From Escherichia phage adrianh, in the sequence record MN850614.1: a DNA stretch of 64,000 nucleotides. The stretch is one strand, 5' to 3'. The translations under genes and the position numbers were made by a program. Of the stretch, positions 38,359 to 56,081 are shown in pieces. The notes beneath the pieces are model-generated. The model was not told the DNA's origin. It worked only from the letters and a program-made list of their open reading frames with translations, and did not search any database. Each line of letters opens with the position of its first letter. Position 1 is the first letter of the stretch.

Positions 38359-38907
38359 ATGAAGAAATTGATTCTAGGTTTGTGCTTAATGTTTACAGCA
38401 CACTTATCTTATGCAGTTGACTGCCCAGAGCTATCAATTAGCCAAAAAGTAAACATGTTAAAAGCTTACCAGTATGGTGAGAATAACATGGGTAAAGGTT
38501 GGGGTATCACTCTAGCTGCTATAGCCTTACAAGAGTCAGAGTTAGGTCTGAAGGTAGAGAATAAAAAGACACATGATTATGGTATCTTCCAGAATCACTT
38601 GAAGACTGTTGTAAAGCGTAACAAAATCAGTCCTAATGTGGCTAAAAAGAAACTCTTAAAAGACTTTGACTATGCTGCTAAGGAAACTCACAAAGAGCTT
38701 GAGTTTTGGACAAAGGTGCATGGTCAGCCAAAGTCAAAGAAGACTTTACAAAAAGTCTTAGCATCATATAATGCTGGGTATTCGTACAGAATCCCTAAAG
38801 CTAAGAAATATTCTCAAGATGTTTATAACAATATGAAAGTAATTGCTCAATGTGAATTTGCAACAAACATTTCTAAGGTAAACCATGAAAAAATTAAGAA
38901 AGTCTGA
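38359..38907 (+). CDS. Secreted lytic-transglycosylase-like protein
   Basis: 182 aa; signal peptide MKKLILGLCLMFTAHLSYA; LQESELG ... DYGIFQ resembles the SLT catalytic region. Confidence 0.5.
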   Translation: MKKLILGLCLMFTAHLSYAVDCPELSISQKVNMLKAYQYGENNMGKGWGITLAAIALQESELGLKVENKKTHDYGIFQNHLKTVVKRNKISPNVAKKKLLKDFDYAAKETHKELEFWTKVHGQPKSKKTLQKVLASYNAGYSYRIPKAKKYSQDVYNNMKVIAQCEFATNISKVNHEKIKKV

Positions 38908-39580
38908 TGAAGTATTGTGCCATGCTTATGACTTACATCCTCATGAGTTAGTTCTTGATTCCTGTGTATGGACTCCAGAACAGTGCAGGGATTTTGAAGA
39001 CACCGCAAGAGAAGTTGTATGTTCACTTGAAGAGTTCCACACATCAGAGCCAATTGTGAATGTTGTAGATAAAGAGACTGGACAAACTATAGGTGTAAGT
39101 CGTGATAGCTTAGTCATAGTCAATAAAGACCTTGTAGAAAAAGGTAACCTCATCTTAGCAGATATTGATGGTGTTCTTACAAATTTTAATCACGAAGATT
39201 GCTCAACGGAATTGACTGATGGGTCATTCTCACAGTACACTAATCTTCTTGACTCTGTAAGAGCAAAACCAACGTATGTCTTTAGTATTATTGATGCAAT
39301 TGCTAATCATGCTGCCATTGGACTCTTGACAGCGAGAGGTGAATCTCAGAGAATACCTACTGAGATGTTTTTAAGGCACAATATAGAGCATGATTACTTG
39401 CTTTTTATGCGTGGTTTTGGAACTAACTCTATAAGTGCAGAAAGTTTGAAAGTGAGGATGATTCAGTCTTGCATTCTTCCTTACTTTAATATAGTATGTT
39501 TTATAGAAGATACAGAGAAGAATGTTCAGAAGGTAAACAGAATCCTTCCACACATTAAAACCATGTTAGTTAAACACTGA
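38885..39580 (+). CDS. HAD-family hydrolase-like protein
   Basis: 231 aa; ILADIDGVL resembles HAD motif I (DxDG). Confidence 0.35.
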   Translation: MKKLRKSDEVLCHAYDLHPHELVLDSCVWTPEQCRDFEDTAREVVCSLEEFHTSEPIVNVVDKETGQTIGVSRDSLVIVNKDLVEKGNLILADIDGVLTNFNHEDCSTELTDGSFSQYTNLLDSVRAKPTYVFSIIDAIANHAAIGLLTARGESQRIPTEMFLRHNIEHDYLLFMRGFGTNSISAESLKVRMIQSCILPYFNIVCFIEDTEKNVQKVNRILPHIKTMLVKH

Positions 39581-39589
39581 GAGAAACTT

Positions 39590-40054
39590 ATGAACAATAT
39601 CATTACGGTAGCACTGGACGTTACAGCAAACAAATCTGAAGTAGTTCGTAACATTATCAAGAGCAACTTTGAAGGTAAAATCTTCCGTGCTGTCAATGTA
39701 AAAGCAGACGGTAACATCCGGGAGTATCGTGCTCTTCTGAATGTTAAGAAACACGTAAAAGGTGCTGGTTCAACGACTGCACACAAAGAAAACCTGATGA
39801 CTATCTATGATATGGGTATGGCTTCAGAGTTAGGTACTGAAGGTATCGTTAAAGAAGGTGCTCCGTATCGCTCTTTCAATCTGGAAACTGCTCTTATGCT
39901 TTCCTTTACAAGTGGTTCTAAAACAACTACTTATCTCTTTACTGATGCTGCAACGGTATCTGCTATCAAGGATAGCACTGTCAAAGCTGGGGTAGCTGCT
40001 GCTGCAAAAGCTTCTTCGATGGCTGCAAATGTCCTTGCTAAAGTCCTCGGTTAA
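39590..40054 (+). CDS. Hypothetical protein
   Basis: 154 aa. Confidence 0.5.
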   Translation: MNNIITVALDVTANKSEVVRNIIKSNFEGKIFRAVNVKADGNIREYRALLNVKKHVKGAGSTTAHKENLMTIYDMGMASELGTEGIVKEGAPYRSFNLETALMLSFTSGSKTTTYLFTDAATVSAIKDSTVKAGVAAAAKASSMAANVLAKVLG

Positions 40055-40065
40055 GGTTAAGATAC

Positions 40066-40089
40066 AGGCTCCTTCGGGAGCCTTTTTCA
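40066..40089 (+). terminator. Rho-independent terminator
   Basis: AGGCTCC-TTCG-GGAGCCT hairpin followed by TTTTT. Confidence 0.65.
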
Positions 40090-40106
40090 TTTCAGGAGAT
40101 TGTTAA

Positions 40107-40454
40107 ATGACATTTAAAGAGTTCTGTCAAGCTACTTTCATAATTGTTTTCTTAGTTGGGGCAGGTGTCTGGGGAGGATACTCTTACAGAGACTATCAAG
40201 TTGCTGAAGCTGAGCTAAATAATGAGAAACTAATAAGTGTTGCCAAAGATGCTTATCAGGAAGGTTTAGCCACACTGAGCACCAATTACAAAAATGATTT
40301 GAAAGATGTGCTTGCTAAGAATAAGCATACAAAAGAGGTACTAACGTATGAAAAGACTAAGCCAGAGTTTTATAATGTTTGTGTTACTGATAATTATGTC
40401 AGGGTGTTCAACGAACAAAGTGAGCAGTACATTCAAAAACTCCCAAGTAAGTGA
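40107..40454 (+). CDS. i-spanin-like protein (N-terminal TM, coiled coil)
   Basis: 115 aa; single N-terminal hydrophobic helix then charged helical region. Confidence 0.4.
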   Translation: MTFKEFCQATFIIVFLVGAGVWGGYSYRDYQVAEAELNNEKLISVAKDAYQEGLATLSTNYKNDLKDVLAKNKHTKEVLTYEKTKPEFYNVCVTDNYVRVFNEQSEQYIQKLPSK

Positions 40455-40617
40455 GAGTGATAAGTACACTCAAGAAGAATCACGGTATATCATCAAAGGC
40501 AACACAGGTAGTGATGTAGCAGCAGCACTTGAGTTCTACCGTGACGGATTTTACCAGTGTACAATCAAAGCTAATAACCTTATTGACATGATTTTATTAG
40601 GGAATAAGCAGCAATGA
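40348..40617 (+). CDS. o-spanin-like lipoprotein overlapping the upstream gene in another frame
   Basis: 89 aa; signal peptide with lipobox-like IMSGC; starts inside the 3' part of the previous ORF, as in Rz/Rz1 pairs. Confidence 0.4.
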   Translation: MKRLSQSFIMFVLLIIMSGCSTNKVSSTFKNSQVSESDKYTQEESRYIIKGNTGSDVAAALEFYRDGFYQCTIKANNLIDMILLGNKQQ

Positions 40618-40883
40618 CAGAGAACGAAGATACTTTCTATGTAGAAGGGTACTTACTGCTACCACGACCAAAAGAAACTTATATGCGGGTTGATTTCTCA
40701 CCAACCATTATGGATAACGTGATGTGTCATATCTTTATGCAAGGTGTCACAGCACAACTTAAGCATGTTGGTAAAGAGTGCAAAATAAAGGTTGACACTC
40801 ATCCAGAAATCAAAGAGAATCACTACACATGGTTCTTACCAGACTCTAAAGAAATCTTAGCAGTTCTTAAAACGAGGAAGTAG
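40614..40883 (+). CDS. Hypothetical protein
   Basis: 89 aa. Confidence 0.4.
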   Translation: MTENEDTFYVEGYLLLPRPKETYMRVDFSPTIMDNVMCHIFMQGVTAQLKHVGKECKIKVDTHPEIKENHYTWFLPDSKEILAVLKTRK

Positions 40884-40885
40884 CT

Positions 40886-41212
40886 ATGCAGATTAATGGA
40901 AGAGACTTTGTAGCCGTTTACTATGATAACGATAAAGAAGTTGGTGTAGCACAGGTAACCTATGGCAATGGTAAGTGGCTATATGGAACAATCGCAGTAG
41001 TAGGAACAAGAAGTGATACAAAAACTTTTAAAGATTGTGTTGACCTTCTTGAAGAATCCATCCACAATCATTGGTGTCTGATATGGATGACTGACAATGA
41101 AGTGATGGAACGTTTCAAAAAGATTGATATCAACATAGACAGCATTGAGCATGTTGACTTGTATGAACTGACTGAGAAGGTAAATTATGAAAGTAATTCT
41201 AGCCAGAGATAA
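40886..41212 (+). CDS. Hypothetical protein
   Basis: 108 aa. Confidence 0.4.
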   Translation: MQINGRDFVAVYYDNDKEVGVAQVTYGNGKWLYGTIAVVGTRSDTKTFKDCVDLLEESIHNHWCLIWMTDNEVMERFKKIDINIDSIEHVDLYELTEKVNYESNSSQR

Positions 41213-41414
41213 AAAGACACGGAAAATTATCCGGTCAGCAGTATTTATTGGAAGAAATGAAGTGATTCCTTTTACAGCAAATGATGTGATAGTCTACAGG
41301 AAAAAATTAGCATTCAGTTATTGCTTACGTGGCTTTATCTCCCAGCCATTAGAAGATTTTAAAAATCGTTGTGGTAAAGGCATCATCATTCAAGAGGCAA
41401 TTATTCATGGCTGA
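41187..41414 (+). CDS. Hypothetical protein
   Basis: 75 aa. Confidence 0.35.
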   Translation: MKVILARDKKTRKIIRSAVFIGRNEVIPFTANDVIVYRKKLAFSYCLRGFISQPLEDFKNRCGKGIIIQEAIIHG

Positions 41415-41607
41415 CTTCTGCAAAGACTGTGCTATCGAGATGTTTGGACGTGATACAGGTGATTTAAAAGGTCTTATCACTGAAGATGACTTTAAAGCTG
41501 GCTATGCAATGCCAGTAATCTGTGAAGGTTGTGGATGTATCTGGGTAGACCACGAAGGACAGCGTGTAAAACCTTCAGAAGATAAAGAATCTTGGGAGAG
41601 ATGCTAA
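41371..41607 (+). CDS. Hypothetical small cysteine-rich protein
   Basis: 78 aa; CKDC ... CEGCGC. Confidence 0.35.
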   Translation: MVKASSFKRQLFMADFCKDCAIEMFGRDTGDLKGLITEDDFKAGYAMPVICEGCGCIWVDHEGQRVKPSEDKESWERC

Positions 41608-42393
41608 ATGGGTATTGTAAAAATCATCAATGGTGATATCTTTGCAGCATTTGATAAAGGTAAGTTTGATGTCATCGGTCACGGTTGCAACTGTATGAAC
41701 TTAATGGGCGCAGGTATCGCTGACAAGATTTCCAAACTTTACCCAAAAGCATATGAGACCGACACAGAAGTTTATATGTATGCAGGTGGTATAGGACACA
41801 AACCCTGTGAAAATTTACTGGGTAATTTCTCTGTAGCACGTTTAAAACAAGGTCGTATAGCTAACCTTTACACTCAGCTTAAGACTGGTAAAGATGCCCG
41901 ATACAGTGCTTTAGAGTCATCTTTGAAGCAGCTTAACAGATACTGTGAAGTCAATCAGTTGAAGAAAGTAGGGTTACCTATGATTGGTGCAGGTATCGGT
42001 GGGCTAGACCCTCAAGCCGTCACAGTTATCATTAATCAGGTGATGAAGAGTGTAGATGTGTATCTATATGTCTATGAAGGAGAGATGTACCACAAGTTAT
42101 GCTCAGGTTGGAAGAACTACTGTGAACCAGAATACTTTGCAGGTGTAGCAGTGTTCACGGATAATGCAGTTACCCTCTTCAGACGAAGAAAGGGTAAGAT
42201 ACATCAAAGTAACCCTCCGGTTGAAAAGATGTCTCTAAGTAACGCTCTAGTTACCCACCTGTCGAAGAGCAATCACAGAATTGCAGTAACATTTGGCAGT
42301 GATGCAGATGCTTATATCTATGCAAGAACTGATGAGGATATCGAGTTAATCTTCTCTTCACCAGAGCTTACCTTCTTAGACGCAAAGAACTAA
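41608..42393 (+). CDS. Macro-domain protein (ADP-ribose binding/processing)
   Basis: 261 aa; N-terminal macro-domain-like segment INGDIF ... GHGCNCMNLMGAGIA. Confidence 0.55.
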   Translation: MGIVKIINGDIFAAFDKGKFDVIGHGCNCMNLMGAGIADKISKLYPKAYETDTEVYMYAGGIGHKPCENLLGNFSVARLKQGRIANLYTQLKTGKDARYSALESSLKQLNRYCEVNQLKKVGLPMIGAGIGGLDPQAVTVIINQVMKSVDVYLYVYEGEMYHKLCSGWKNYCEPEYFAGVAVFTDNAVTLFRRRKGKIHQSNPPVEKMSLSNALVTHLSKSNHRIAVTFGSDADAYIYARTDEDIELIFSSPELTFLDAKN

Positions 42394-42461
42394 GAAACTT
42401 CGTAGTATATTCACAATAGACTAAGCCTTTCTTATCTGGTAAATTTTTCAGGTAAGGAGGG

Positions 42462-42650
42462 TTTTTTCATTTCAGATTTGTGCAGGTAGAGTTCTGTAGA
42501 GAAATCTATAGAGAAAATTTTGAACTCCAAAGAGAAAATTCATTTTCAAACTGTGCAGGTAATCTCCAAAGGGTTTTTTTCATTTTCAAAACGTGCAGAG
42601 AAAAATCAGGTCGGGCAAGAAAAATCATTTTAGAATTGTGCAGGTAGGTG
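42462..42650 (+). repeat. Four direct repeats, consensus TCATTTYMRA-N-TGTGCAGGTA
   Basis: Copies at about 42462, 42536, 42574 and 42620 in an ORF-free stretch after the macro-domain gene. Confidence 0.6.
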
Positions 42651-42902
42651 GGTACATGTGGGGATGTCGCCATTTCTCACAAGGCTACCACATCTAAAAA
42701 TAAAAGTCAACAGAAAAATTTGTAGCGGATTGAAAAATAATTCTTGATTGTAGTTCTGTTTTGTGGTAGTCGCGCGCACCCGTTTCATTACAATCTTTGC
42801 AAAAAATATTTTTAAAATTCCTATTGACTCTTTGAGTATGGTTATCTAATATTTGCATCAGACGGGCAATCAAGCCCACTTCCTAAACTGGAGAATCTAA
42901 AA

Positions 42903-43109
42903 ATGCTTTACAGTCGCGAATTGATGGTTACAACTAACATTAACACAAAGGCAAAACGTTTTTACATGCAAATCTGTGGCGTATGGTCTAGAATATCAGA
43001 GACTGACTATTGCAACTATGTAGAAACGGCTATAAACTCTAATTGCTACCTTACAAGAAATACAAGAAAGTACATAAGACAGACAGCAATTTATTACTAC
43101 GATAAATAA
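42903..43109 (+). CDS. Hypothetical small protein
   Basis: 68 aa ORF with AGGAGAATC... GGAGAA-like RBS upstream; low support. Confidence 0.3.
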   Translation: MLYSRELMVTTNINTKAKRFYMQICGVWSRISETDYCNYVETAINSNCYLTRNTRKYIRQTAIYYYDK

Positions 43110-43197
43110 AGTACTTTACAAGGGGCTTATAGTTCGATAAAGTAAGCCCCAGATAAAGAGCTTTACCAAATTAACCCTTAAACTAGGAGATTCAAAA
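43109..43197 (+). promoter_or_regulatory. Type A cassette, copy 1 (promoter-like, stem-loop, RBS)
   Basis: AAGTACTTTACAAGGGGCTTATAGTTCGATAAAGTAAGCCCCAGATAAAGAGCTTTACC ... GGAGA ... ATG; TTTACA-N17-TAAAGT with GGGGCTTA/TAAGCCCC stem. Confidence 0.55.
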
Positions 43198-43581
43198 ATG
43201 GCATATCGTGCACCGAAATTCATCAACAAAGACAACTTTCGCAAAGTACTGGAGAAGTCACTTGATGAGAATTTTAAAGGCAACATTATTGTTGTTCACG
43301 CATTCAATTTTAAGTATGATGTAAACGGGAATAGAATCAACCATTACACGGCAACCATGTTAGACGGTACACTATCAAGTGAAAAAGCCGTACTGAATGC
43401 ACTAGCAGGACGCGGAAAAGTATTAGTAAGATGTGATAAGCGACGTTATCAGGGTGGCGCATATGGTTATGATGATGCTGTTTATCATCTTGAAAATATG
43501 GGCTATAAAGTAGAAAAAGCTGGAGTATCGCAAATCATCGGGAGCGATGGTTATGTAACAATCTTCAAAATTAACGAATAA
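43198..43581 (+). CDS. Hypothetical protein (small-gene array 1)
   Basis: 127 aa; starts Met-Ala directly after cassette A. Confidence 0.55.
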   Translation: MAYRAPKFINKDNFRKVLEKSLDENFKGNIIVVHAFNFKYDVNGNRINHYTATMLDGTLSSEKAVLNALAGRGKVLVRCDKRRYQGGAYGYDDAVYHLENMGYKVEKAGVSQIIGSDGYVTIFKINE

Positions 43582-43667
43582 AGTACTTTACAAGGGGCTT
43601 ATAGTTCGATAAAGTAAGCCCCAGATAAAGAGCTTTACCACTAAATCCTAAATTGGAGAACTTAAAA
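43581..43667 (+). promoter_or_regulatory. Type A cassette, copy 2
   Basis: Near-identical to copy 1. Confidence 0.55.
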
Positions 43668-43901
43668 ATGGCTATTATCAAAAACGTTGTAATTGCTGCA
43701 AAAACTCGTGATGACGCTCGCGTTATGGCTAAAAAGTTATGCGGGAAAGTGGTTGACAATGGGAAAAAATCTGCTGTAAGATGGGGCGTAAAGGTTGATA
43801 AACATTTAACCTTAAAACGTAGTTCAAACAACCTTTTTAAAGGTGTAAAATCACTCGGTAAAGTGAATGTTTTCACTAAAAAGGTTATAAAATGCACTTA
43901 G
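43668..43901 (+). CDS. Hypothetical protein (small-gene array 2)
   Basis: Start set to the ATG at 43668 (the ORF track begins at a TTG inside the cassette). Confidence 0.5.
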   Translation: MAIIKNVVIAAKTRDDARVMAKKLCGKVVDNGKKSAVRWGVKVDKHLTLKRSSNNLFKGVKSLGKVNVFTKKVIKCT

Positions 43902-43925
43902 CATTAACTGGAAATTTAATCTGAT

Positions 43926-44012
43926 AAAGTACTTTACATGGGGTTTAAAAGTTGATATCTTAAGCCCCAGATAAAGAGCTTTACCACTCAATCCTAAACT
44001 GGAGATTCAAAA
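43926..44012 (+). promoter_or_regulatory. Type A cassette, copy 3 (variant)
   Basis: Variant stem GGGGTTTA/TAAGCCCC (a C-to-T change that still pairs as G-U). Confidence 0.5.
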
Positions 44013-44525
44013 ATGAAAACTGTAGACGCTACTTTTGAAGTTGTAAAAGAAAAATTCACCATTATCTATGAAGCGGTAAATTGCTTTGAAGCAAGCCATA
44101 ATCTTGATAATTGGAAGTTTACAGATGACCATCAAGGCGGTGTGACTATTAAAAATCCTAACTGTCAGCGTAACGATTTTAAATATGCAATTCCTTTAAA
44201 TTATAGCCTTAAGCAGCTTTCTAGTGACTATGCAAAACAAGGCCGGGAAAACCCATCAAAAGAGGCTTATATCAGCTTACAGGAAGAACTAGAAAGAGAT
44301 TTAGAGGCTTCAGAGTACAACCTTGCCGCGAAAGTTGTGGATGCAAACGGTAACACGGTTTTAGAAAGTTTTTATCTTGGTTATGCTTTCGATTGGTGCT
44401 ATCGTGACGGCGATGATTTAGAGGATAGACTAAAAGAAGAGGTGAGCAATTCAGACGCAGAAACTGAAGTATTAGAACGTTTGGAATCGTTGAAAGACTC
44501 AGTGATGAATATCTTTAAGAACTAA
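44013..44525 (+). CDS. Hypothetical acidic protein (small-gene array 3)
   Basis: 170 aa. Confidence 0.55.
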   Translation: MKTVDATFEVVKEKFTIIYEAVNCFEASHNLDNWKFTDDHQGGVTIKNPNCQRNDFKYAIPLNYSLKQLSSDYAKQGRENPSKEAYISLQEELERDLEASEYNLAAKVVDANGNTVLESFYLGYAFDWCYRDGDDLEDRLKEEVSNSDAETEVLERLESLKDSVMNIFKN

Positions 44526-44529
44526 ATAG

Positions 44530-44617
44530 ATTTCTTTACACGGGGCTAACAAGCTGATATGATAGCCCCAGATAAAGAGATTTATCAAATAAAGCCCTTA
44601 AACTAGGAGATTCTAAA
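44530..44617 (+). promoter_or_regulatory. Type A cassette, copy 4 (variant)
   Basis: Stem GGGGCTA/TAGCCCC with a different loop sequence; flanks conserved. Confidence 0.5.
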
Positions 44618-44914
44618 ATGAAATTATCGAATAAAGTTCGTGAAAATCTGAGCAAATTACTCAACAAAATTGATTTCATTGAAACATCAAGAAATAGTCA
44701 TGATGTTATGGAATGGTTACACGGCAAAATAAAAGGCCGTCGTGTAGTGATTTGTTTATGGAATAGTTGCAGGGAGTATAAAAAACCTGTATTGCAAGTA
44801 AATATTTATGATGATACTTTTAAAAGTCCTGTAAAGTCTAAAAGTGATTTATTAGAATCCTATGAGATAACTTTAAATGGCAAAGTATCACGTAAAGAGG
44901 AAACACCATGTTAA
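44618..44914 (+). CDS. Hypothetical protein (small-gene array 4)
   Basis: 98 aa. Confidence 0.5.
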   Translation: MKLSNKVRENLSKLLNKIDFIETSRNSHDVMEWLHGKIKGRRVVICLWNSCREYKKPVLQVNIYDDTFKSPVKSKSDLLESYEITLNGKVSRKEETPC

Positions 44915-45240
44915 TGACTGGTATCACTGCAATCATTGCCATTTTCGCGCTATATAAGGCATATAAAGCCTATAATCTAGCAAATAAGGCAATCACACAG
45001 CAGGTTAGCAATAACCTTGTAGAAAGCTTTCTAGGGCGCCTCAGTGATGAGCAAATAAAGCGGCTAGAGATGAGCTTCAGATATAAAGCGAAAACCTATC
45101 AGATAAGTGACATCTTCAAAGATGATTTTCAGTTAGTGGATGATTATAACTCTCTGATAAATGCTTTAAATATTAGTGACTTAAAAGACTATTACGCTGT
45201 AATTGTCCAAGAATTGAACAAACGAAAAAATTCCTCTTGA
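44908..45240 (+). CDS. Hypothetical membrane protein (small-gene array 5)
   Basis: 110 aa; N-terminal hydrophobic helix; start overlaps upstream stop. Confidence 0.5.
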   Translation: MLMTGITAIIAIFALYKAYKAYNLANKAITQQVSNNLVESFLGRLSDEQIKRLEMSFRYKAKTYQISDIFKDDFQLVDDYNSLINALNISDLKDYYAVIVQELNKRKNSS

Positions 45241-45328
45241 TTTTGGTTTTTAAAACAAGTAAATTACTAATCAACGGGAGGTAATAACCTCCCCACTAAG
45301 TAAAATCCTTAAACTAGGAGCTTTTAAA
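45236..45328 (+). promoter_or_regulatory. Type B cassette, copy 1
   Basis: CTTGATTTTGGTTTTTAAAACAAGTAAATTACTAATCAACGGGAGG-loop-CCTCCCC ACTAA ... AGGAG ... ATG. Confidence 0.55.
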
Positions 45329-45601
45329 ATGTACACTACTAACAACGGTCGCACCTTAAACGTAACCCTACGCCACTACATGAACGGCGTAATGCACTTC
45401 GAGGATTTACAAGCCGAACAACATATCTTAGATTGGCAACTTGCAGGACTACAAAAAACTGCTACAGGATACGGGAAAAAGATTCCAACCAGTTGGAAAG
45501 TATACTACGAAGGCCGTTTGCGCAGAATTTATCAGGATGTGCAAAGCAATAGCGCATTGAGTTACATCATAGTAAAAGGTAAAAAGCTGCATTTAGTATA
45601 A
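45329..45601 (+). CDS. Hypothetical protein (small-gene array 6)
   Basis: 90 aa. Confidence 0.5.
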   Translation: MYTTNNGRTLNVTLRHYMNGVMHFEDLQAEQHILDWQLAGLQKTATGYGKKIPTSWKVYYEGRLRRIYQDVQSNSALSYIIVKGKKLHLV

Positions 45602-45687
45602 AGTACTTTACAAGGGGCTTATAGTTCGATAAAGTAAGCCCCAGATAAAGAGCTTTACCACTAAATCCTAAATTGGAGAACTTAAAA
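45601..45687 (+). promoter_or_regulatory. Type A cassette, copy 5
   Basis: Near-identical to copy 1. Confidence 0.55.
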
Positions 45688-46092
45688 ATGGCTATTAATA
45701 ATCGCGAGTTATCAATCTTAAAAGCACGTTTGACCGTTAACCGGATTAATGTTATTACGTCATCAGCACCGGACGAAACATTGCACAACATTATTGGGAA
45801 GATTCAAAGCGTTATCTTAGACGTTGAAAACGTAAAAAACTCATTGGCTGACGTTGCAGCAGGTATCACGCTAGACGGTGCACAATATGAAATGACCGAC
45901 ATGTTAGGCAAATCTAAGGTAATGAATAAAGAGCTTGATTTGAAAATGTTTCGGTTTGCTGTTAAAGTGTGGCTATCTGTCGAGTATGACGCTAACTTTG
46001 CAATCGCTGACTTTTTCGCCACTTGGTTACAACGTAATTTGACAAATCATGATTTTCGTGGTATCTGTGATGCAATTTATGCAGAACTCTAA
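45688..46092 (+). CDS. Hypothetical protein (small-gene array 7)
   Basis: Start set to ATG 45688 (the ORF track begins at a TTG inside the cassette). Confidence 0.5.
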   Translation: MAINNRELSILKARLTVNRINVITSSAPDETLHNIIGKIQSVILDVENVKNSLADVAAGITLDGAQYEMTDMLGKSKVMNKELDLKMFRFAVKVWLSVEYDANFAIADFFATWLQRNLTNHDFRGICDAIYAEL

Positions 46093-46098
46093 AAATTT

Positions 46099-47078: not shown

Positions 47079-47091
47079 AGAGGCTTAAATC

Positions 47092-47818: not shown

Positions 47819-47902
47819 TGTTCGAGGGGGTTTATCTAAAAGGGATTAACTTAAAAGATTCTTTATAGATAAACTTAAAAAATTGCTTGCAATCAGATAT
47901 CA

Positions 47903-47978: not shown

Positions 47979-48509
47979 ATGAACAAATTTCAAGCTATCA
48001 ACTACATTCGCTCAAATGCTGTAATGTCTAAGCCTGTTAAAGATACCTATGAATTTCGCTGCAATGGGGTACACTTTGCAACCATCACTAAATCAGAAAA
48101 CGGGGCTTATTACGTTCATCGTCGTAATGTTGCAACCGTTGTAGTCTCTCACTTTATGCAAGCTGTAGCAGAGTTATTACCGCTATTCTTAGGGATTTAC
48201 TTGGATGAGTGTAAAAACGTTCACAACCACGTTAAAAACCTTTTAAACGGTTATAAAATGGCTTATGAACGTTCTATCAAGTCCTTAAACAAGTTCTATA
48301 AAGCCCCTGTAAATACTGTTTCAATGGCCTACGCTGCAAATGGTGAAAGAGTAAACCTATCCGATGTGGAAGATATCGAGCTTTACGACCATCGGCCTAA
48401 CGGTTACTCTCAGACACTCGGTGAAGGTTTAACGTTCAATATCAAGAACTTAGAAAAAACTTTAAAAGATATTGAAAAAGATATTGACGAGACAATCAAA
48501 AATCTGTAA
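47979..48509 (+). CDS. Hypothetical protein (small-gene array 12)
   Basis: 176 aa. Confidence 0.55.
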   Translation: MNKFQAINYIRSNAVMSKPVKDTYEFRCNGVHFATITKSENGAYYVHRRNVATVVVSHFMQAVAELLPLFLGIYLDECKNVHNHVKNLLNGYKMAYERSIKSLNKFYKAPVNTVSMAYAANGERVNLSDVEDIELYDHRPNGYSQTLGEGLTFNIKNLEKTLKDIEKDIDETIKNL

Positions 48510-48573
48510 ATTACTAATCAACGGGAGGTAATAGCCTCCCCACTAAACAAAGTCCTAAACTGGAGTTATCAAG
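48500..48573 (+). promoter_or_regulatory. Type B cassette, copy 5
   Basis: Overlaps the stop of the upstream gene; hairpin conserved. Confidence 0.5.
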
Positions 48574-48837
48574 ATGGAAAACGTAGAATTAACCACACTT
48601 TTACAAATTGCAACCGACAAAGAAGATGTAGCATTATTCCACCGTATCGAAAGTGATTTGTTCAATGGTGAAATCATCAAAGAATCTTATGAAGTTGTCG
48701 GATTCAAAGATGGTAAAGCGTTTGGCTTTTTTGACCTCGACAAAGGCAACGCGGTTGCAAAATATGATGTTTTATCTTGTGAGATTCTTACAAAATACAA
48801 CGAAAAAAGGCTTGCAACATACGCCAACATGCAGTAA
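48574..48837 (+). CDS. Hypothetical protein (small-gene array 13)
   Basis: 87 aa. Confidence 0.5.
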   Translation: MENVELTTLLQIATDKEDVALFHRIESDLFNGEIIKESYEVVGFKDGKAFGFFDLDKGNAVAKYDVLSCEILTKYNEKRLATYANMQ

Positions 48838-48903
48838 ATTACTAATCAACGGGAGGCGACAACCTCCCCACTAAATAAAACCCTTAAACTAGGAGATTCA
48901 AAA
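48832..48903 (+). promoter_or_regulatory. Type B cassette, copy 6 (loop variant)
   Basis: Stem GGGAGG/CCTCCC kept while the loop changes to CGACAA. Confidence 0.5.
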
Positions 48904-49152
48904 ATGGCAACTATCCGCGCTACTGTTAACGAGTTCGGTTTTTCCTCTCTGGATGTTAAATTTGACATTGTAGGCACTGATAACGCCTTTGAAATGGTGA
49001 AAGGTCTTATCAGTCAGACCATCAAAGGCTATAATCCTTCTAAGGAGTTCTGGGAGGAAACAAAACAGGAAGTTCTTAAGGATGGTTACACTTATCACTA
49101 TTGGGGAGAAAAAATCGTCTCCCTGTACTACGACAAACAAGATTATAACTAA
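48904..49152 (+). CDS. Hypothetical protein (small-gene array 14)
   Basis: 82 aa. Confidence 0.5.
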   Translation: MATIRATVNEFGFSSLDVKFDIVGTDNAFEMVKGLISQTIKGYNPSKEFWEETKQEVLKDGYTYHYWGEKIVSLYYDKQDYN

Positions 49153-49191
49153 TCGGCGCAGCGGGGCTAAATAGCCCCAGATACCTTTACA

Positions 49192-49217
49192 GCCCCTTTC
49201 CCATAGGGGCTTTTTTA
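49192..49217 (+). terminator. Rho-independent terminator closing the plus-strand block
   Basis: GCCCCT-TTCCCAT-AGGGGC hairpin followed by TTTTTT. Confidence 0.65.
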
Positions 49218-49219
49218 CG

Positions 49220-50780
49220 TCTATCCAATCCTCATACAACCCCTTTCCCTTTCCTTTCCAGAATCTTATCAGACCTTAAAAAGCAATAACTTTACAGCCT
49301 TTTACTAAGTCAATTAATTGGCCTTATTAATAAGCCCTTAAACATAAGCCAATAACCCCAGAAAGGGGGCAACCCATTTAAACGCCATATAAAGCCCTAT
49401 AACGGCCTTTTTAACCTAACTTAAGGGATTGCATTACCTCACCCTTAAAAGCCCTTTATAAAGCTTCACAGAGCCTTAAAAGAATCTTATAAGGGTGTAA
49501 GCTTTATTATCTCGTTAGCTATCTTGTGAACTACTAAACAACCCCCTTGATAGTAACTGAAAAGTATGTTATAGGGGCTTTAAAGTTACTTTGAAGTATC
49601 TTAAGAGTTACGTAAATGCTAGCCCCCTTAACATTCTCTTAACAATTTCTTAACAATCCCTACATAGTTATGCTTTTAAGGCACTTGTTAGCAACTTGTT
49701 AGCCCCTTGTTAAATCTCTGTTAAGACCACGTAAAAGCCTTGTAAGAGTCTTTGACATAGCCTTTAAAGCTTCTGTAAAGCCTTATAAAGAGGTGTCTGT
49801 ACAGTTGGGGTGTAACTACTAGTGAGAGACTTAAAAGAGCTTACAAGGAGCTATAGAGAGCTTTTAAGAGGTATGTTTAAGGAATCACTAAGAAAGGAAA
49901 GGGAACGATAAGAAAAGAGTAGTGACCATGTTAATAGCTTGTTAAAAAGATTAAACACTTGTTAGAAACTTGTTAATTATCTTAACAAAATAACTCTTTA
50001 AAATTAACTTGTTAGCTCTTGTTAGTCATCTGTTAAGCCTCTGTAAAGACTATTCAGCACTTGTTAATTGGTATTGTTACCAATCCCTAGAAAACTGTTA
50101 AGCCCTTGTCAGTTCTGTTAAGAAACTGTTAAGACCTTTGAAGAGTTGTTAAGAAGATGTGAGAACTGTTAAGAGATTGTTAAGGATATTTTAAAATTTT
50201 GCAAAGGGGATGTTACAGGGATGTTAAGGGCTACCAAGCAGATATACATCCTCTACAGATATTTTTCAGTTCCTTCAAAGACCCTAAAAAAAAAATGACT
50301 TGACAGTCTTATTTTATAAAAATTTTAAAATTCTGAATAATTACCTAGACAGTCTTTTAAAAATACAGGTAGAAACAGGCTTATAAGATACCTTGTTAGT
50401 ACCGTGTTAGACCTTGTGAGATAAGGTCTGTGAAGATATTCCTGTTAAGTTTGTTAAAACAGCCTATATAGAGGCTTAGTAATACCTAGTGAACACCTAT
50501 AGAGGGTAACATAGCTAACCTAGAGATTAAGAGGTGTATAGGAGCTTCTAAGAGTGTGTAGAGAGATGGTTAAGGTGATTGTATAGGTTGTTAAGAAGGC
50601 TTGTTAGAAGAGTGTTTAGAAGGCTTGTTAGAGGGCTAGTTAGAAGGGTTATACAGAGGGGCTATTAAGACCACTAGATAGTTACTAAGATACTATATAG
50701 TACTATATAACTATATATAGAGAGTAAGATTAAGAAGGTTGTTAAGAAGGGTAGATATTTTATTCACATATGATGGTGAC
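49220..50780. repeat. ORF-free region dense in short direct repeats (iteron-like)
   Basis: No ORF of 60 aa or more on either strand over about 1.6 kb; 49220-49520 rich in AGCC(C/T)TTWWAA-type motifs; 49520-50700 carries more than 25 copies of YTGTTARG; AT-rich ACTATATA repeats at about 50690-50725. Confidence 0.6.
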
Positions 50781-50854
50781 CCAGAGGTTGGGACAACCGA
50801 TAAAATTTTATAAAAATTAAAAAGCCCCCCAATTAAGGAGGCTCTTAAGATATT

Positions 50855-51460
50855 TTAAATGAGTGTTTCCAGAACTGTCTTCAGTGATGACTTGGTTGTC
50901 TGATAAAAATGAGTGAAGCCATTGTTGTTATCAAACACCTGCATCATGATACCATCTCCCTTGATTGGGTACACTCGGATATCATAGTGAAACCCATTAA
51001 AGACAGCAGAACCACTACAGAATGAACTAAAATCATCTACTGAGATGTACTCTTCATGACCTGTGATTTTTATACAAACACCTTTACTCGGTCTCTTAGG
51101 GTTGATATCTTCCATCACAGACATATTCTGTCCACCAAGAGATACCATAGTGACCACTTTACGGTTCTTCTGTCTGAAGTACATTTTAACTTTCTGCAAG
51201 GTGTCTTCATAGAACGGATAAGACTTCTCTACAAAGATTCCTTCAAGTGGCTCTTTACCGTTTACAATACCTCTGGTATGTCGTACTGAGAAGATAAGTT
51301 GCTCTAGCAGGTCAAGGCTTTCTTCGGATAGTGCTTCCCTAATATCATTCCAATCAAGTACTAGGTAGTTACCTTCAACATCTTTTAAGTTATCTTTTTC
51401 CATATCTATCACACCATTATCGTAAAACTTGGTAAGCTGGGACTGCAAACTTGTTGCCAT
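50855..51460 (-). CDS. Hypothetical protein
   Basis: 201 aa, last gene of the minus-strand operon. Confidence 0.55.
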   Translation of the reverse strand: MATSLQSQLTKFYDNGVIDMEKDNLKDVEGNYLVLDWNDIREALSEESLDLLEQLIFSVRHTRGIVNGKEPLEGIFVEKSYPFYEDTLQKVKMYFRQKNRKVVTMVSLGGQNMSVMEDINPKRPSKGVCIKITGHEEYISVDDFSSFCSGSAVFNGFHYDIRVYPIKGDGIMMQVFDNNNGFTHFYQTTKSSLKTVLETLI

Positions 51461-51881
51461 TGTTCTTAATGAGGTCTTCTTCTGTTACTAAGAATGTAAT
51501 CCCACATAAGTGTGTGTAGTGGCTATCATACTCAAATATTTTAAGTAAGTATTTACCATCGTGATAAACAGATTCTACTACACCTTTTGCAACAATCTTT
51601 CCAGTCTTGAAATCTTTAAGAGGGTATACATTACCAACTTTAGGAACTGTTTTCATCTCAGATTCTTTTAGCTTCTCACCAGCTTCTACATCACCTAGTA
51701 AGTGAGAACTTTCAAACGCTACATATTGCATATAAGCCTCTGAGCATTCCCAGATAAAACAATGTACAAGAACCTTAGCAGCATGTCTTGAACAATTCAA
51801 CTTATCACAAATCTCTTTGTACATTTCGTCTTTAGTTGAGTTATCAAGCATTGCTTTTTGAACGACTTCTTTAATTTTCAT
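51417..51881 (-). CDS. Hypothetical protein
   Basis: 154 aa. Confidence 0.5.
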   Translation of the reverse strand: MKIKEVVQKAMLDNSTKDEMYKEICDKLNCSRHAAKVLVHCFIWECSEAYMQYVAFESSHLLGDVEAGEKLKESEMKTVPKVGNVYPLKDFKTGKIVAKGVVESVYHDGKYLLKIFEYDSHYTHLCGITFLVTEEDLIKNNGNKFAVPAYQVLR

Positions 51882-51933
51882 TTCGCTACCTTCTAAGTTT
51901 CTACAAAGGGGCTATCAAGTAACCCCTAAGTTA

Positions 51934-52158
51934 TTACTCAGACTTTTCAGTCTTCTTATCGGATTTCTTACTAGTCTTCTTCTCAGCTTTCTGCTCAGGT
52001 TCCTTCTCAGAAGTTGCCTTGATAACCATATCAAGAAGCTCTGATAAGTCACTCTTCAGCAAAGTAACAGGCTGCTCATTGTAGAAGTTTTTGTCAAGAT
52101 AGACTTTGAACTCTTCAATAGATGGAAATCCAAAAATTGGTACAGGTGTTTTAATCAT
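51934..52158 (-). CDS. Hypothetical small charged protein
   Basis: 74 aa with Lys/Glu-rich C-terminus. Confidence 0.4.
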   Translation of the reverse strand: MIKTPVPIFGFPSIEEFKVYLDKNFYNEQPVTLLKSDLSELLDMVIKATSEKEPEQKAEKKTSKKSDKKTEKSE

Positions 52159-52234
52159 TACTTAGTCTCTCCATAGGCATCTTTTAAGATTGCCTTGTTA
52201 ATCATTTCAGCTATTGCAAAACGAACACATACAG

Positions 52235-52768
52235 CTATAATTGTAGGTTGCATTCTTTACTTACCTCTTCAAGTTTAACCTCAGAGTCCTTAAGTCGTTT
52301 CTTATGAACTCTGAATCTTACTAGTGAGATGATAATACCAGCTAAAGGAACAGCATACAAGTACCAGATATCGTGTATCTTTGTAGTAATCTGTGTAATT
52401 GTCAAATCTTGAGCTATGCAGCTAATTGCTGATACTGCCAGTAACATCGCTAAGAAGAATGCCAGTACCATAACAATACTCAGGCAGCCTCTGGCATGGT
52501 GTTCATGCTTAATGCACTTATTCTTTTCGTCAACAACTCTGTTGTAGTCATTTGCAAAGTCTCTGTAGAAAGCTTTCAGGTATTCTTGAGTGTAGCCTTC
52601 AAAGCAACCTGTGCCATACCAATAATCACCACCAAAATGTGCTATGATACCGGTATCTCCATTTGGTTTCGTCACTCTTAAAGAAGTGTGATGGCGAGTA
52701 TCCTGAAAATCTATCTTGTATCTTTCTTCGTAAATCATTTTCCAACCCCTCTCAATCGTTTGTTCCAC
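52235..52768 (-). CDS. Membrane protein (two predicted TM helices)
   Basis: 177 aa; hydrophobic stretches LSIVMVLAFFLAMLLAVSAI and YLYAVPLAGIIISLV. Confidence 0.5.
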   Translation of the reverse strand: MEQTIERGWKMIYEERYKIDFQDTRHHTSLRVTKPNGDTGIIAHFGGDYWYGTGCFEGYTQEYLKAFYRDFANDYNRVVDEKNKCIKHEHHARGCLSIVMVLAFFLAMLLAVSAISCIAQDLTITQITTKIHDIWYLYAVPLAGIIISLVRFRVHKKRLKDSEVKLEEVSKECNLQL

Positions 52769-52953
52769 TCAAGGTCAACAAGTCTTTGCAGGACTTTCCC
52801 TCTAGGTGTTACGCCTTTTAAATCTGCATCATAGCAACGGTAAAAGTCACCCTCAGCGTGTTTACCGTAGCATTTTCTGATATTCTGGCTTCTACGATAC
52901 TGTTCTAACAGGGATAGTTTGTAGTAATCTTCAACTGTAGTTAACTTTTTCAT
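52735..52953 (-). CDS. Hypothetical protein
   Basis: 72 aa. Confidence 0.35.
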   Translation of the reverse strand: MKKLTTVEDYYKLSLLEQYRRSQNIRKCYGKHAEGDFYRCYDADLKGVTPRGKVLQRLVDLEWNKRLRGVGK

Positions 52954-53495
52954 TCTTTCACCATAGCGTTTCTGAACTGGCGTTGTGTTTCTCTTGTAAT
53001 TTCGTTTGGAGTAAACCCTGCTTTCAGCATATCTCTGAAAAGAACTTCTAAGTAATCTCGCTCAATAATGTAAATGGCATTCTTAGTAGATGCTTGAAGT
53101 TCTATTAAGTCACTACTAATCTCTTCGCACTTACTGGTAAGTTCTGTGTCAGTCTTCTTAAAAACTGGCATAGTATGTTTGTGGTGGCCTTTATTAGTCT
53201 CTACTAAAAACTCTAGAAAATCTTCAGAGTCCTTTAGAGCAATCCCTATAAAGTTTTTGTAAGCACCTGTGAAAGATAAGGAATCAATCTCAGCAGTTGA
53301 GTATACAGTCCCTGCACACAGTCTTGCAGAAGTACTAAATGTGTGGTTTGGTGTTGTGTCAAAGTCTAAGTTCTTCAGTGGTCGGAAATAAACTGTACCA
53401 TTGTGTGAGATGTGTGTTACAACAGCCTCAACACTCTTTGAAGGATTCTGTTTAACATACAAAATAATTTTATCGTGTTCTTTTACTTTAGCCAT
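52950..53495 (-). CDS. Hypothetical protein
   Basis: 181 aa. Confidence 0.5.
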   Translation of the reverse strand: MAKVKEHDKIILYVKQNPSKSVEAVVTHISHNGTVYFRPLKNLDFDTTPNHTFSTSARLCAGTVYSTAEIDSLSFTGAYKNFIGIALKDSEDFLEFLVETNKGHHKHTMPVFKKTDTELTSKCEEISSDLIELQASTKNAIYIIERDYLEVLFRDMLKAGFTPNEITRETQRQFRNAMVKE

Positions 53496-53567
53496 ATCTA
53501 CTCTCCAGAAACTAAAAAGGGAACTACCTCTCGATAGCTCCCATCATAATCAATATTGTATACTCGG

Positions 53568-54149
53568 TCAAGAGTATTTTTTAGGCAGTAATGCACTGCG
53601 TTTGTTACTCTCTTCACTCAATAGTGCAATGAAGTCATCACTTTTACCTTTCCACGGGCTGAATGAAGGGATATGTTCGCGGATAGCCTCAATCACTGTT
53701 TTAAGTGCTGTGTTCTTCATCCACCAGTCAGAATCTGCTGATGCCACCACGTAGTATCCACCGTCATCAGTTAAAATTGGCTCTGAAATACATGGTGAAA
53801 TTAAAGTGGTAATGATTGAACCATTGTTCATGTAATATGTGCGCTTCATAACTTTTTCAAGAAGTTTGTGAAGGTCACCAAACAGTGTTACAAGTTCTTT
53901 GTGGTCGATGTCTTTTTCGAGGCTTGCTCGGTACTTCAATAGTGCAGCATCAACCTCTCTGTCATTAAACTTGAAATATTGAACTTCATCAACAAGGCAA
54001 ACACTGATGTTGTTAACATTCATAGTCAGCTTGCAAACTTTTGCAGGGGAGTTGATGCTTGGTTGAAAAAGTGCAACACACCCTTCAATATTTCCAAAGT
54101 GTTGTACAAGTGTTACTTGTGGAATGATATCCTGTTGCTCTTCGGACAT
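53568..54149 (-). CDS. Hypothetical protein
   Basis: 193 aa. Confidence 0.5.
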   Translation of the reverse strand: MSEEQQDIIPQVTLVQHFGNIEGCVALFQPSINSPAKVCKLTMNVNNISVCLVDEVQYFKFNDREVDAALLKYRASLEKDIDHKELVTLFGDLHKLLEKVMKRTYYMNNGSIITTLISPCISEPILTDDGGYYVVASADSDWWMKNTALKTVIEAIREHIPSFSPWKGKSDDFIALLSEESNKRSALLPKKYS

Positions 54150-54493
54150 TACAGTTTCCTCATTAAATACTTTTTAAGTTGTGTGTTAGGTTTCTCAAAA
54201 ACTTCTATAGAAGATATCTTGACAGCTTCACCACGCATACCTGTATGTTTGAATATATAATACTCTAACATTCCTATGTACTTTGCTGGTAAATCATATT
54301 TGACATACACCGTCACAGAATCTTCAAATTCGACAACCTTTGTACCATCTTTGTAGTTAAACTCTTTAGGATGGTTGTAGTTGTCTATGTCGTACATTAA
54401 AAAGAGTCTTTTACGTTGTAAGTCAAGCTTATTTGTTAAAGACTCTTTGATATCTGAGAAGTTTTTGTACACTGTGACATGGAGCTTACTCAT
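54149..54493 (-). CDS. Hypothetical protein
   Basis: 114 aa; start overlaps the downstream gene. Confidence 0.5.
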   Translation of the reverse strand: MSKLHVTVYKNFSDIKESLTNKLDLQRKRLFLMYDIDNYNHPKEFNYKDGTKVVEFEDSVTVYVKYDLPAKYIGMLEYYIFKHTGMRGEAVKISSIEVFEKPNTQLKKYLMRKL

Positions 54494-54779
54494 CGTTAAA
54501 CTCTCTGACGAAGAAATAGTTGACTTTGTTATTACCTACCATAAGGTCAAAGCAGGTATTCTCAAAAGGTTTGTTGTAGGCATCATATGAAACATATGGG
54601 TCAGCTACTTGCTTAGTGCTTAACTTCTTACTTGATGGGTTTAAGAGGCCACCATACAGCTTCTTGATAGACTCTTCTACAACAGACCAGATGATTTCGT
54701 CAGTAATTTCTTCGTACAGGTCAAGTTCACGCTCTAGTGAGAAGTCACAAATAGGGAAAATAACCTGTACTTTACTCAT
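54486..54779 (-). CDS. Hypothetical protein
   Basis: 97 aa. Confidence 0.45.
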   Translation of the reverse strand: MSKVQVIFPICDFSLERELDLYEEITDEIIWSVVEESIKKLYGGLLNPSSKKLSTKQVADPYVSYDAYNKPFENTCFDLMVGNNKVNYFFVREFNDE

Positions 54780-55174
54780 TAGCGAATGACCTGTGTTACC
54801 TGAATAGCTTCAGTTACTGACAAATCACCAACCGTTTCTTCTTTGACGAAGGTGAAGGTAAGTTCAACAGGCTCTTGTTCTTCCTGCTCAACCGGAATAC
54901 CGTTAAGCTCATCAAAGATTGATTGAGTTGTCCAGTCTTCTCCACCATCTGGGTAGTGGATTGCGTAAAGTGGAAACTCTAAATTATACCAAGCAAAAAC
55001 AGGGCAACCATCTGCATCATCTCGACATCTGTGGAGATATGTGTTTGTACCTTCAAAATGCAAATGGAGATTACCATTCTTCTCAAATAGAAGAGCATCT
55101 TGCAGGTCTAGTTCCTCATTTTCGCTGTAACGGCTGACATCAACCTTAACATGGATATGACTGTTATTATTCAT
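54779..55174 (-). CDS. Hypothetical acidic protein
   Basis: 131 aa. Confidence 0.5.
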   Translation of the reverse strand: MNNNSHIHVKVDVSRYSENEELDLQDALLFEKNGNLHLHFEGTNTYLHRCRDDADGCPVFAWYNLEFPLYAIHYPDGGEDWTTQSIFDELNGIPVEQEEQEPVELTFTFVKEETVGDLSVTEAIQVTQVIR

Positions 55175-55565
55175 AAAAACCTCTCTCTGCTTGTTCGATT
55201 TTTGCTCTTAAAATTTCGCAATGTTGTAAATGGTAGTTAGCTTCTTGTTCATGTGTTGCTAACTGCCTTTCAAGAACAGTTTTATAATAACCTGCAAGTT
55301 GCTCTTTTGTCAACGGGTGTTCTGAAATAATATCGAGTCCACTTTCGCCAAGAGGGTTGAATTGTCCATGCTCATTGACATTGTAAGTCTCAAACTTGAA
55401 CAGGCCATTGTTCACAGACTCAATAGGTGACAGTTCAACAAGCTCTACAGTAAACCGTGTATACACCTTGTCGCCTCTTGAAACCACATTGTTTCCGACA
55501 ATGCGTACAAGCGAACCATTGCGAGTGTACTTAAAAGTCCCAAAGTCACTAGCCCAAAGCTTCAT
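55167..55565 (-). CDS. Hypothetical protein
   Basis: 132 aa. Confidence 0.5.
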   Translation of the reverse strand: MKLWASDFGTFKYTRNGSLVRIVGNNVVSRGDKVYTRFTVELVELSPIESVNNGLFKFETYNVNEHGQFNPLGESGLDIISEHPLTKEQLAGYYKTVLERQLATHEQEANYHLQHCEILRAKIEQAERGFYE

Positions 55566-55583
55566 AGTTTTCTCCTTAGAAAA

Positions 55584-55607
55584 TAAAAAAGGCTCCCGAA
55601 GGAGCCT
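55584..55607 (-). terminator. Rho-independent terminator (minus strand)
   Basis: GGCTCC-CGAA-GGAGCC hairpin; T-run follows on the minus strand. Confidence 0.65.
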
Positions 55608-55616
55608 ATGAAGATA

Positions 55617-56081
55617 TTACTTTGGATATACACTGTCAAGATAAATGTCAGCTTCCATTCTACGTCTGTTTTTCAGACCGTTTGATGTGACCTTCTTACC
55701 TTTGACTGTAACCTTGTTCCACCACTGCATAGCTTCTGCGCAACCTACCTTATTACCAGCATTGTGGCGCTTGATAAATGTAGAATCCTGCATAGCTGTG
55801 ATGCCGATGTTGTATGTTTCACTTACAAGTGCATCAAACTCGTTCTGAGAAGTTGGAACCTTGATAGCTTTGTTCACTGCTGTAACAAACTTTTCAACAT
55901 CTGCGAGAAGATAATGTTCAGCTTGTTCAGCAGTAATTATCATACCCATCTTAACAGGTTTTCCGTCAATACGGATTGTACCATACCCGATTGTAGGGAT
56001 TCCGGCAGAGTCTTCGTAAGCCTCTAACTTCAGACCTTCAAAGAACTTAATAGCTTCTAAACCTTTTCTTGAGAGTTGCAT
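55617..56081 (-). CDS. Phage lysozyme (GH24 muramidase, endolysin)
   Basis: 154 aa; FEGLKLEAYEDSAGIPTIGYG resembles the T4/lambda lysozyme catalytic region. Confidence 0.8.
   Translation of the reverse strand: MQLSRKGLEAIKFFEGLKLEAYEDSAGIPTIGYGTIRIDGKPVKMGMIITAEQAEHYLLADVEKFVTAVNKAIKVPTSQNEFDALVSETYNIGITAMQDSTFIKRHNAGNKVGCAEAMQWWNKVTVKGKKVTSNGLKNRRRMEADIYLDSVYPK

Follow-up and report, generated by a model that had tools for sequence, protein, structure and literature searches.

Dispersed T4-style lysis genes and a putatively secreted Vs.1-family protein in the Felix O1-like Escherichia phage adrianh

How is host lysis encoded in the Felix O1-like myophages? The Felix O1 paper reported no holin-lysin cassette, the Moogle note described lysis genes "scattered around the genome," the Meda genome note also states that the lysis genes are dispersed, and the Mushroom note refers to "a T4-like lysis system." One component is known at the structural level: the structure and activity of the endolysin LysF1 have been published, with a Glu15/Asp24/Thr30 triad and with a signal-arrest-release (SAR) segment stated to be absent. 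Here we examine a 64,000-nucleotide stretch of Escherichia phage adrianh (sequence record MN850614.1; hereafter the window), in which a preliminary description made from the sequence had singled out four open reading frames (ORFs) between positions 38359 and 56081. All four are present, as follows.

38359–38907, + strand: predicted Vs.1-family secreted lytic transglycosylase (GH23/SLT fold), 182 amino acids, with a predicted signal peptide at residues 1–19, Glu59 as the predicted catalytic residue, and the conserved pair Cys22/Cys165
40107–40454, + strand: i-spanin, 115 amino acids, with an N-terminal transmembrane segment at about residues 8–24 and an invariant periplasmic Cys92
40348–40617, + strand: o-spanin, 89 amino acids, an outer-membrane lipoprotein precursor in which Cys20 of the lipobox MSGC precedes a Ser at +2 and Cys71 is invariant
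55617–56081, − strand: soluble GH24 endolysin (LysF1/T4 E type), with Glu15, Asp24, and Thr30 and no N-terminal membrane segment

On the DNA evidence the source of the window is a Felixounavirus, a Felix O1-like myophage. A 3-kb stretch around the flagged genes is 98.2% identical to Escherichia phage humlepung and matches 258 phage records, nearly all of them Felix O1-like (Felixounavirus, Ounavirinae); DNA matches to the endolysin region give the same picture, and the gene order is shared with humlepung, Meda, Mushroom, and Felix O1. This shared order and DNA identity imply that each flagged ORF has a near-identical counterpart already deposited. All of the flagged set has been described or annotated before in close relatives; the observation is right but not new. 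In our reading, which we consider very likely to be correct, the interval carries the usual scattered lysis genes of a Felix O1-like myophage, arranged as in T4, together with one accessory enzyme. Three parts of this reading are demonstrated or strongly supported: the endolysin is a soluble GH24 enzyme, the spanin is of the overlapped two-component type, and the Vs.1-family protein has a secretory signal and a GH23 fold.

The endolysin was called as a GH24 lysozyme on the opposite strand, and the call is right. The protein matches the Pfam family Phage_lysozyme at 4.8e-40 (137 bits versus a cut-off of 22.3), and it differs by only a handful of substitutions from LysF1 of phage FAHEc1 (PDB 7M5I; about 95% identity, seven differences over 154 aligned residues, E 2.3e-96). 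The Glu-x8-Asp-x5-Thr triad falls at E15/D24/T30, as in LysF1, and T4 lysozyme E, with about 21% identity, aligns across the triad. Hydropathy does not rise above 0.67 in residues 1–60, and neither a SAR nor a signal segment is present, from which we infer that the enzyme depends on a holin; the LysF1 paper comes to the same conclusion. At 56079–56083 (− strand) the start codon of the endolysin gene, ATG, overlaps by a single base with the TAA that ends the upstream gene for an Ig-domain tail protein, and directly 3' of the endolysin gene lies the following element.

55590–55607, − strand: terminator-like hairpin

From the shared base and this strong hairpin, the endolysin appears to be co-transcribed with a virion structural gene. 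In many Felixounavirus records the ORF at 58339–58710 (+ strand) is annotated as a D-alanyl-D-alanine carboxypeptidase; we reject it as a third wall enzyme, since a Pfam search returned only DUF5681.

The spanin pair is also well supported. The i-spanin matches phrog_1152, "Rz-like spanin," at 9e-42, and it carries a single N-terminal hydrophobic segment (hydropathy peak of 2.14 at residues 7–21) that a relative with 53% identity and an Erwinia phage both retain. The o-spanin has the N-terminus MKRLSQSFIMFVLLIIMSGC, in which the lipobox MSGC ends at Cys20 and is followed at +2 by Ser rather than Asp, so that sorting to the outer membrane is expected; it matches phrog_4180 at 1e-50 and phrog_456, also "Rz-like spanin," at 2e-4. 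Among relatives the lipobox varies as SGC, SAC, or ASC, and alignments show the lipobox Cys, o-spanin C71, and i-spanin Cys92 to be conserved in relatives down to 53–74% identity. Wider homologue searches with the spanins gave only close relatives, and we therefore inspected the Erwinia phage, which belongs to another genus, by hand to see whether conservation extends beyond the genus. It has the same overlapped layout; its o-spanin keeps a lipobox (TASC) and a second Cys, and its i-spanin keeps the Cys. The conservation of these signals and cysteines in relatives and in the Erwinia phage excludes chance.

To which spanin class does the pair belong? The o-spanin gene lies in the +1 frame and shares 107 nt with the i-spanin gene, while its last 163 nt lie past the i-spanin stop. 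It is therefore of the overlapped class, as in P2, and not embedded, as in lambda; the preliminary description recognized the transmembrane helix and the lipoprotein correctly but had the latter embedded. P2 LysB/LysC likewise combine a type II inner-membrane protein with a lipoprotein gene in the +1 frame that extends past the i-spanin stop, whereas lambda Rz/Rz1 are embedded and T4 PseT.3/PseT.2 are separated. Kinship with PseT.3/PseT.2 was considered and rejected, as the pair has no sequence similarity to them. The o-spanin contains no proline, in comparison to 10 prolines among the 40 mature residues of lambda Rz1, and each subunit has one periplasmic Cys. The records of humlepung, Meda, and Mushroom carry i-/o-spanin annotations for the pair, and the spanin survey places it, as the JH2/Felix01 family, under "Overlapped" (Kongari et al. 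2018). We note that the o-spanin has lost its lipoprotein signal peptide in many database entries, because its start has been set at Met17 (MSGC...) or farther downstream. Such miscalled starts occur among protein clusters P0030–P0043, one of which has 303 members, and the humlepung record starts the o-spanin at Met10.

The product of 38359–38907 required closer analysis. The gene has a good ribosome-binding site (AGGAG), and the protein begins with MKK and 17 uncharged residues that run into the site SYA/VD, with small residues at −3 and −1 by a rule-based check. This N-terminus is that of a typical signal-peptidase-I substrate and contains neither a lipobox nor a long Gly/Ala-rich anchor; every aligned full-length homologue has one or two basic residues, 15–21 uncharged residues, and small residues at −3/−1 (AXA-type). 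Seven residues, Glu59, Gly63, Gln78, Tyr137, Asn138, Gly140, and Tyr151, are invariant across 15 homologues with identities down to 30%; Ser60 is conserved in at least 90% of them, and Gly75 and Ser136 are nearly invariant. As read from the alignment, the invariant residues are the E-S, G-x-x-Q, and (A/S)-Y-N-x-G signatures of family-1 lytic transglycosylases. A single-sequence search of the PDB gave no matches; only a profile of the alignment reached EtgA (7e-4) and goose lysozyme (7e-3), and the E-S motif aligns with both. By fold matches the protein has the goose-lysozyme-like/lytic-transglycosylase fold. No second acidic residue is conserved among the 15 homologues, which favors a transglycosylase mechanism over a lysozyme mechanism. 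The motifs, profile matches, fold, and signal-peptide pattern together uphold the description of this ORF as a secreted lytic-transglycosylase-like protein.

Comparison with described enzymes places the protein in the Vs.1 family. It is 32% identical across its full length to T4 Vs.1 (NP_049725), which has the same length, with a BLASTP E of 2e-16 over residues 1–155; the signal peptide and the Q-E-S catalytic motif line up, and the YN-x-G motif is common to both. It matches phrog_600 at 1e-57, a family that PHROGs labels "unknown" and to which T4 vs.1 is also assigned. We conclude from these similarities that the product of 38359–38907 is the orthologue of T4 Vs.1; T4 likewise carries Vs.1 as a putative extra wall enzyme beside its GH24 endolysin. 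The two differ in that the Cys22/Cys165 pair of the Felix O1-type protein is missing from the aligned T4 Vs.1, and in their neighbors, which are rIIB and a polynucleotide kinase here and regB and vs around T4 vs.1. By tblastn the family occurs in 2,127 phage records, from large virulent myophages that include Felix O1-like, T4-like, Vi1-like, Aeromonas, Vibrio, and Acinetobacter phages. EtgA-type enzymes open the wall for, and are recruited by, a secretion machine, and no such partner is known here; IpgF, IagB, VirB1, and P19 are further specialized small periplasmic lytic transglycosylases. The EtgA of enteropathogenic Escherichia coli reached by our profile uses Asp D60 (title of PDB entry 4xp8), which is not conserved in the Vs.1 family. 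Literature searches on vs.1 function found just two items, a marginal SLT similarity already remarked in 2006 and the CRISPRi-ART screen discussed below.

Some records give the gene another name. Vs.1-family homologues are labeled "RegB endoribonuclease" or "endoribonuclease" in KP143762, KF669653, MN850587, OL615013, and LN881729, and a RegB-like endoribonuclease encoded at 38359–38907 would find its support in such database labels only (Mushroom, Marshall, mistaenkt, ChubbyThor, slur04). We give this idea practically no credence and reject the annotation: the protein has no similarity to T4 RegB (E 19), and it has a lytic-transglycosylase fold and clear homology to the product of vs.1, the neighbor of regB in T4. 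T4 Vs.1 formerly went by a name that the Felix O1 record still uses for the orthologous ORF3, "hypothetical 20.7 kD protein in vs-regB intergenic region," and the RegB label is probably annotation drift seeded by it.

We propose that these components could act together in the following way. The soluble LysF1-type GH24 muramidase would accumulate in the cytoplasm and need a holin to reach the wall, and that holin is probably encoded at the end of the tail-fiber operon. After wall degradation, the overlapped two-component spanin would fuse or disrupt the outer membrane, the i-spanin being anchored in the inner membrane and the o-spanin lipid-anchored in the outer membrane, with one conserved periplasmic cysteine in each that may be available for homodimer disulfides. 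This spanin mechanism is drawn by analogy with lambda Rz/Rz1 and P2 LysB/LysC. The Vs.1 orthologue is predicted to be exported by Sec, cleaved after Ala19, and oxidized in the periplasm (Cys22–Cys165). It would then be a small periplasmic GH23 lytic transglycosylase, with Glu59 as its single catalytic acid, that cuts glycan strands from mid-infection. Tentatively, we suggest that from this stage onward it introduces nicks into the infected cell's sacculus or makes it thinner, an accessory that conditions the wall for fast and complete lysis; we regard this role as possible rather than probable. When periplasmic lytic transglycosylases are overexpressed, the E. coli wall is reported to become weaker: cells at first lyse or turn large and spherical, and the culture later recovers. 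This outcome fits wall conditioning without wholesale early lysis. The 25-min expression peak of the Felix O1 orthologue, shared with the i-spanin and lysin genes, and the Semi-Fit score of T4 vs.1, both given below, are in keeping with this reading.

Which gene encodes the holin? The preliminary description had identified none, but holin-labeled ORFs do lie in the window, at 539–910 and 63355–63912, outside the interval that it covered. The candidates are as follows.

539–910, + strand: database-annotated putative holin, 123 amino acids, with one N-terminal transmembrane segment and a coiled-coil C-terminal domain (phrog_4038)
344–538, + strand: possible holin or holin partner, function unannotated, 64 amino acids; the N-terminus is hydrophobic and the C-terminal tail charged and very acidic (phrog_402)
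63355–63912, + strand: DUF7338 protein with an alternative "holin" label, 185 amino acids, with one N-terminal transmembrane segment (Pfam DUF7338, 4.5e-61)

The best candidates are probably the last genes of the tail-fiber operon, that is, 539–910, possibly with 344–538, and the assignment is a putative one. The last gene after the tail-fiber genes is 539–910, just as T4 t follows genes 37 and 38; like the class III holin T of T4, which combines one transmembrane segment with a periplasmic domain, its product has one N-terminal transmembrane segment and a soluble C-terminal domain, at 123 amino acids versus 218. It is labeled holin or putative holin in humlepung (100% identical), VSe11, Moogle, Sf13/15/17, Mordin, and others, and searches of PHROG and Pfam, as well as NCBIfam, gave no match of it to a holin family. 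NCBIfam was equally uninformative on the transglycosylase, the spanins, and the other holin candidates. The stop of 344–538 abuts the ATG of 539–910, and 344–538 has homologues in Erwinia, RB49/JSE-like, Vibrio, and Aeromonas phages as well. The DUF7338 gene lies in the tRNA cluster and is labeled holin in Mushroom, JLBYU32, and ESCO45, but its product gave no holin-family match either. It is also conserved in T4-like phages, and because T4-like phages have their own holin it is the weaker candidate; kinship with T4 holin T was rejected, as the two proteins show no similarity.

Small conserved membrane proteins with holin-like topologies are also encoded at 25685–25891 (+ strand), 28096–28439 (+ strand), 52235–52768 (− strand), and 5984–6130 (− strand). 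They include a 68-residue protein (phrog_4532) that has two transmembrane segments and whose C-terminus is charged, members of two adjacent "membrane protein" PHROGs, and a 177-residue protein with two C-terminal transmembrane segments; none of them carries an annotation.

A genome-wide CRISPRi-ART knockdown screen covered both T4 and the Ounavirinae phage SUSP1, and its published scores for the relevant genes are as follows.

T4 vs.1: Semi-Fit, score 0.81, p 0.099
SUSP1 agp083, transglycosylase orthologue: Not Fit, 1.02, p 0.28
SUSP1 agp086, i-spanin orthologue: Not Fit, −0.54, p 0.72
SUSP1 agp087, o-spanin orthologue: Not Fit, −1.38, p 0.92
SUSP1 agp124, lysozyme: Not Fit, 0.82, p 0.14
SUSP1 agp028, annotated putative holin: Not Fit, 0.20, p 0.60
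SUSP1 agp027, 64-residue orthologue of 344–538: Fit, 2.27, p 0.0007
SUSP1 agp134, DUF7338: Semi-Fit, 1.24, p 0.087

The T4 spanins were also Not Fit, and the pooled screen did not measure outer-membrane disruption. Since the screen failed to detect even T4 e, its negative results are weak evidence.

Several of these observations weigh against our reading of the interval as dispersed lysis genes plus one accessory enzyme. The transglycosylase scores 19.2 bits against Pfam SLT (PF01464), below the gathering threshold of 21.3 (the domain does occur in more distant homologues), and the signal-peptide and lipobox calls come from rule-based inspection and conservation. Both the enzymology and the biological role of the transglycosylase are read from its sequence, and its SUSP1 orthologue was Not Fit. 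As for the holin, the label sits on two different genes in different records, and the screen found the orthologue of the putative holin Not Fit and its small upstream neighbor Fit, which keeps the holin assignment putative. The knockdown data flag 344–538 while being ambiguous on holin identity. It is conceivable, if doubtful, that the Vs.1 family serves a distinct, conserved function apart from endolysis and entry, and that the true Felix O1-like holin is 344–538 rather than either labeled gene. In one scenario for the Vs.1 family, the sacculus would be thinned in a programmed way so that the spanin complex or the swelling cell can function; in another, the family would control wall-fragment signaling or competitors.

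What else might the secreted transglycosylase do? It could be a second, holin-independent endolysin, exported by Sec and inactive until the membrane is depolarized, which would make this a true dual-lysin system. The GH23 fold and signal peptide are compatible with such a role, as are the Semi-Fit score of T4 vs.1, the position about 1.2 kb upstream of the spanins, which is kept in the Erwinia Ounavirinae phage, and the Felix O1 reverse transcription PCR data, in which ORF3, ORF6 (the i-spanin), and ORF35 (the lysin) all peak at 25 min and so belong to the same expression stage. The Not Fit score of the SUSP1 orthologue speaks against it, and so does a cleavable-looking signal peptide with a conserved AXA site in place of a Gly/Ala-rich SAR anchor. 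Furthermore, T4 and phage Marshall show that outside the Ounavirinae the gene is unlinked to lysis genes. In T4, mutants in e fail to lyse the host even with an intact vs.1; the orthologue there thus cannot replace the endolysin, and the transglycosylase is unlikely to be a self-sufficient endolysin. On balance we judge a dual-lysin system improbable.

Another reading is a periplasmic factor that would exclude superinfecting phages or competitors by altering the wall or the site at which incoming phages penetrate, and this too we consider improbable. The protein is predicted to be periplasmic, its gene stands in an early/middle transcription unit beside rIIA/rIIB, and the presence of the family in more than 2,100 records of myophages that already have endolysins suggests a role distinct from lysis. 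One would expect a wall-cutting enzyme, however, to make penetration easier, not harder, and the known T4 exclusion proteins Imm and Sp are unrelated to Vs.1-type transglycosylases. The preliminary description had also raised the prospect of a role in entry. Many phages carry virion-associated transglycosylases, and phi29 gp13, T7 gp16, and phiKZ gp144 are among the lower-scoring fold matches of the protein. A Sec signal peptide, however, would remove it from the cytoplasm, the site of virion assembly; the gene lies among early/middle genes rather than in the structural module; and Felix O1 ORF3, the orthologue, is absent from the 17 structural proteins identified by proteomics. The export signal, the non-structural location, and the absence from the Felix O1 virion proteome make a virion-borne entry enzyme very unlikely. 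An accessory enzyme that conditions the wall is the role that we tentatively favor.

The genomic context bears on the arrangement as a whole. The preliminary description had considered an unusual split lysis cassette. The lysis genes are indeed split, but the arrangement is not unusual: a split layout is documented as the rule in Felix O1-like phages and in T4. The elements around the transglycosylase and spanin genes are as follows.

34703–37069, + strand: rIIA, in the region immediately upstream of the transglycosylase (humlepung annotation)
37149–38258, + strand: rIIB (phrog_609 RIIB at 3e-88; humlepung annotation)
38272–38295, + strand: terminator-like hairpin between rIIB and the transglycosylase gene, whose 10-bp stem includes five GC pairs, accompanied by a T-run; the Meda record annotates a terminator here
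40066–40083, + strand: terminator-like hairpin that parts the transglycosylase-kinase-orf5 unit from the spanin unit (Meda annotation)

Hairpin terminators at 38272, 40066, and 42423 divide the block 38359–42393, all of which is downstream of rIIA/rIIB. Genes that are dispersed in T4 are clustered in this block (+ strand), namely vs.1, a pseT-like kinase, the adjoining spanins, and a tk.4-like macro-domain protein gene (41608–42393), whose product has an extra C-terminal half of about 120 residues. In T4 the spanin genes pseT.2/pseT.3 adjoin pseT, and here the spanin genes adjoin the PseT-like kinase. The linkage of transglycosylase and spanins holds within the Ounavirinae but not in T4 or in the Ackermannviridae (phage Marshall), and for that reason we do not rely on it as a clue to function. 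Elsewhere in the window, 8175–8432 (− strand) encodes an 85-residue predicted lipoprotein (MNNKVKSCVKAMVALGVIFLAGC..., lipobox LAGC, phrog_902), which could be a receptor-blocking or superinfection-exclusion lipoprotein.

Finally, what does the locus add? There is little new biology in the lysis genes themselves, since a crystal structure of the endolysin exists, the spanins have been catalogued, and the scattered layout appears in several genome papers. There is a practical point for annotation, in that Vs.1 homologues are often mislabeled as RegB and the start of the o-spanin is often miscalled, with the loss of its signal peptide. Beyond these points, the biology of interest lies in the role of the Vs.1 family during infection and in the identity of the holin, in a tractable group of phages that is used for the biocontrol of Salmonella and E. 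coli.

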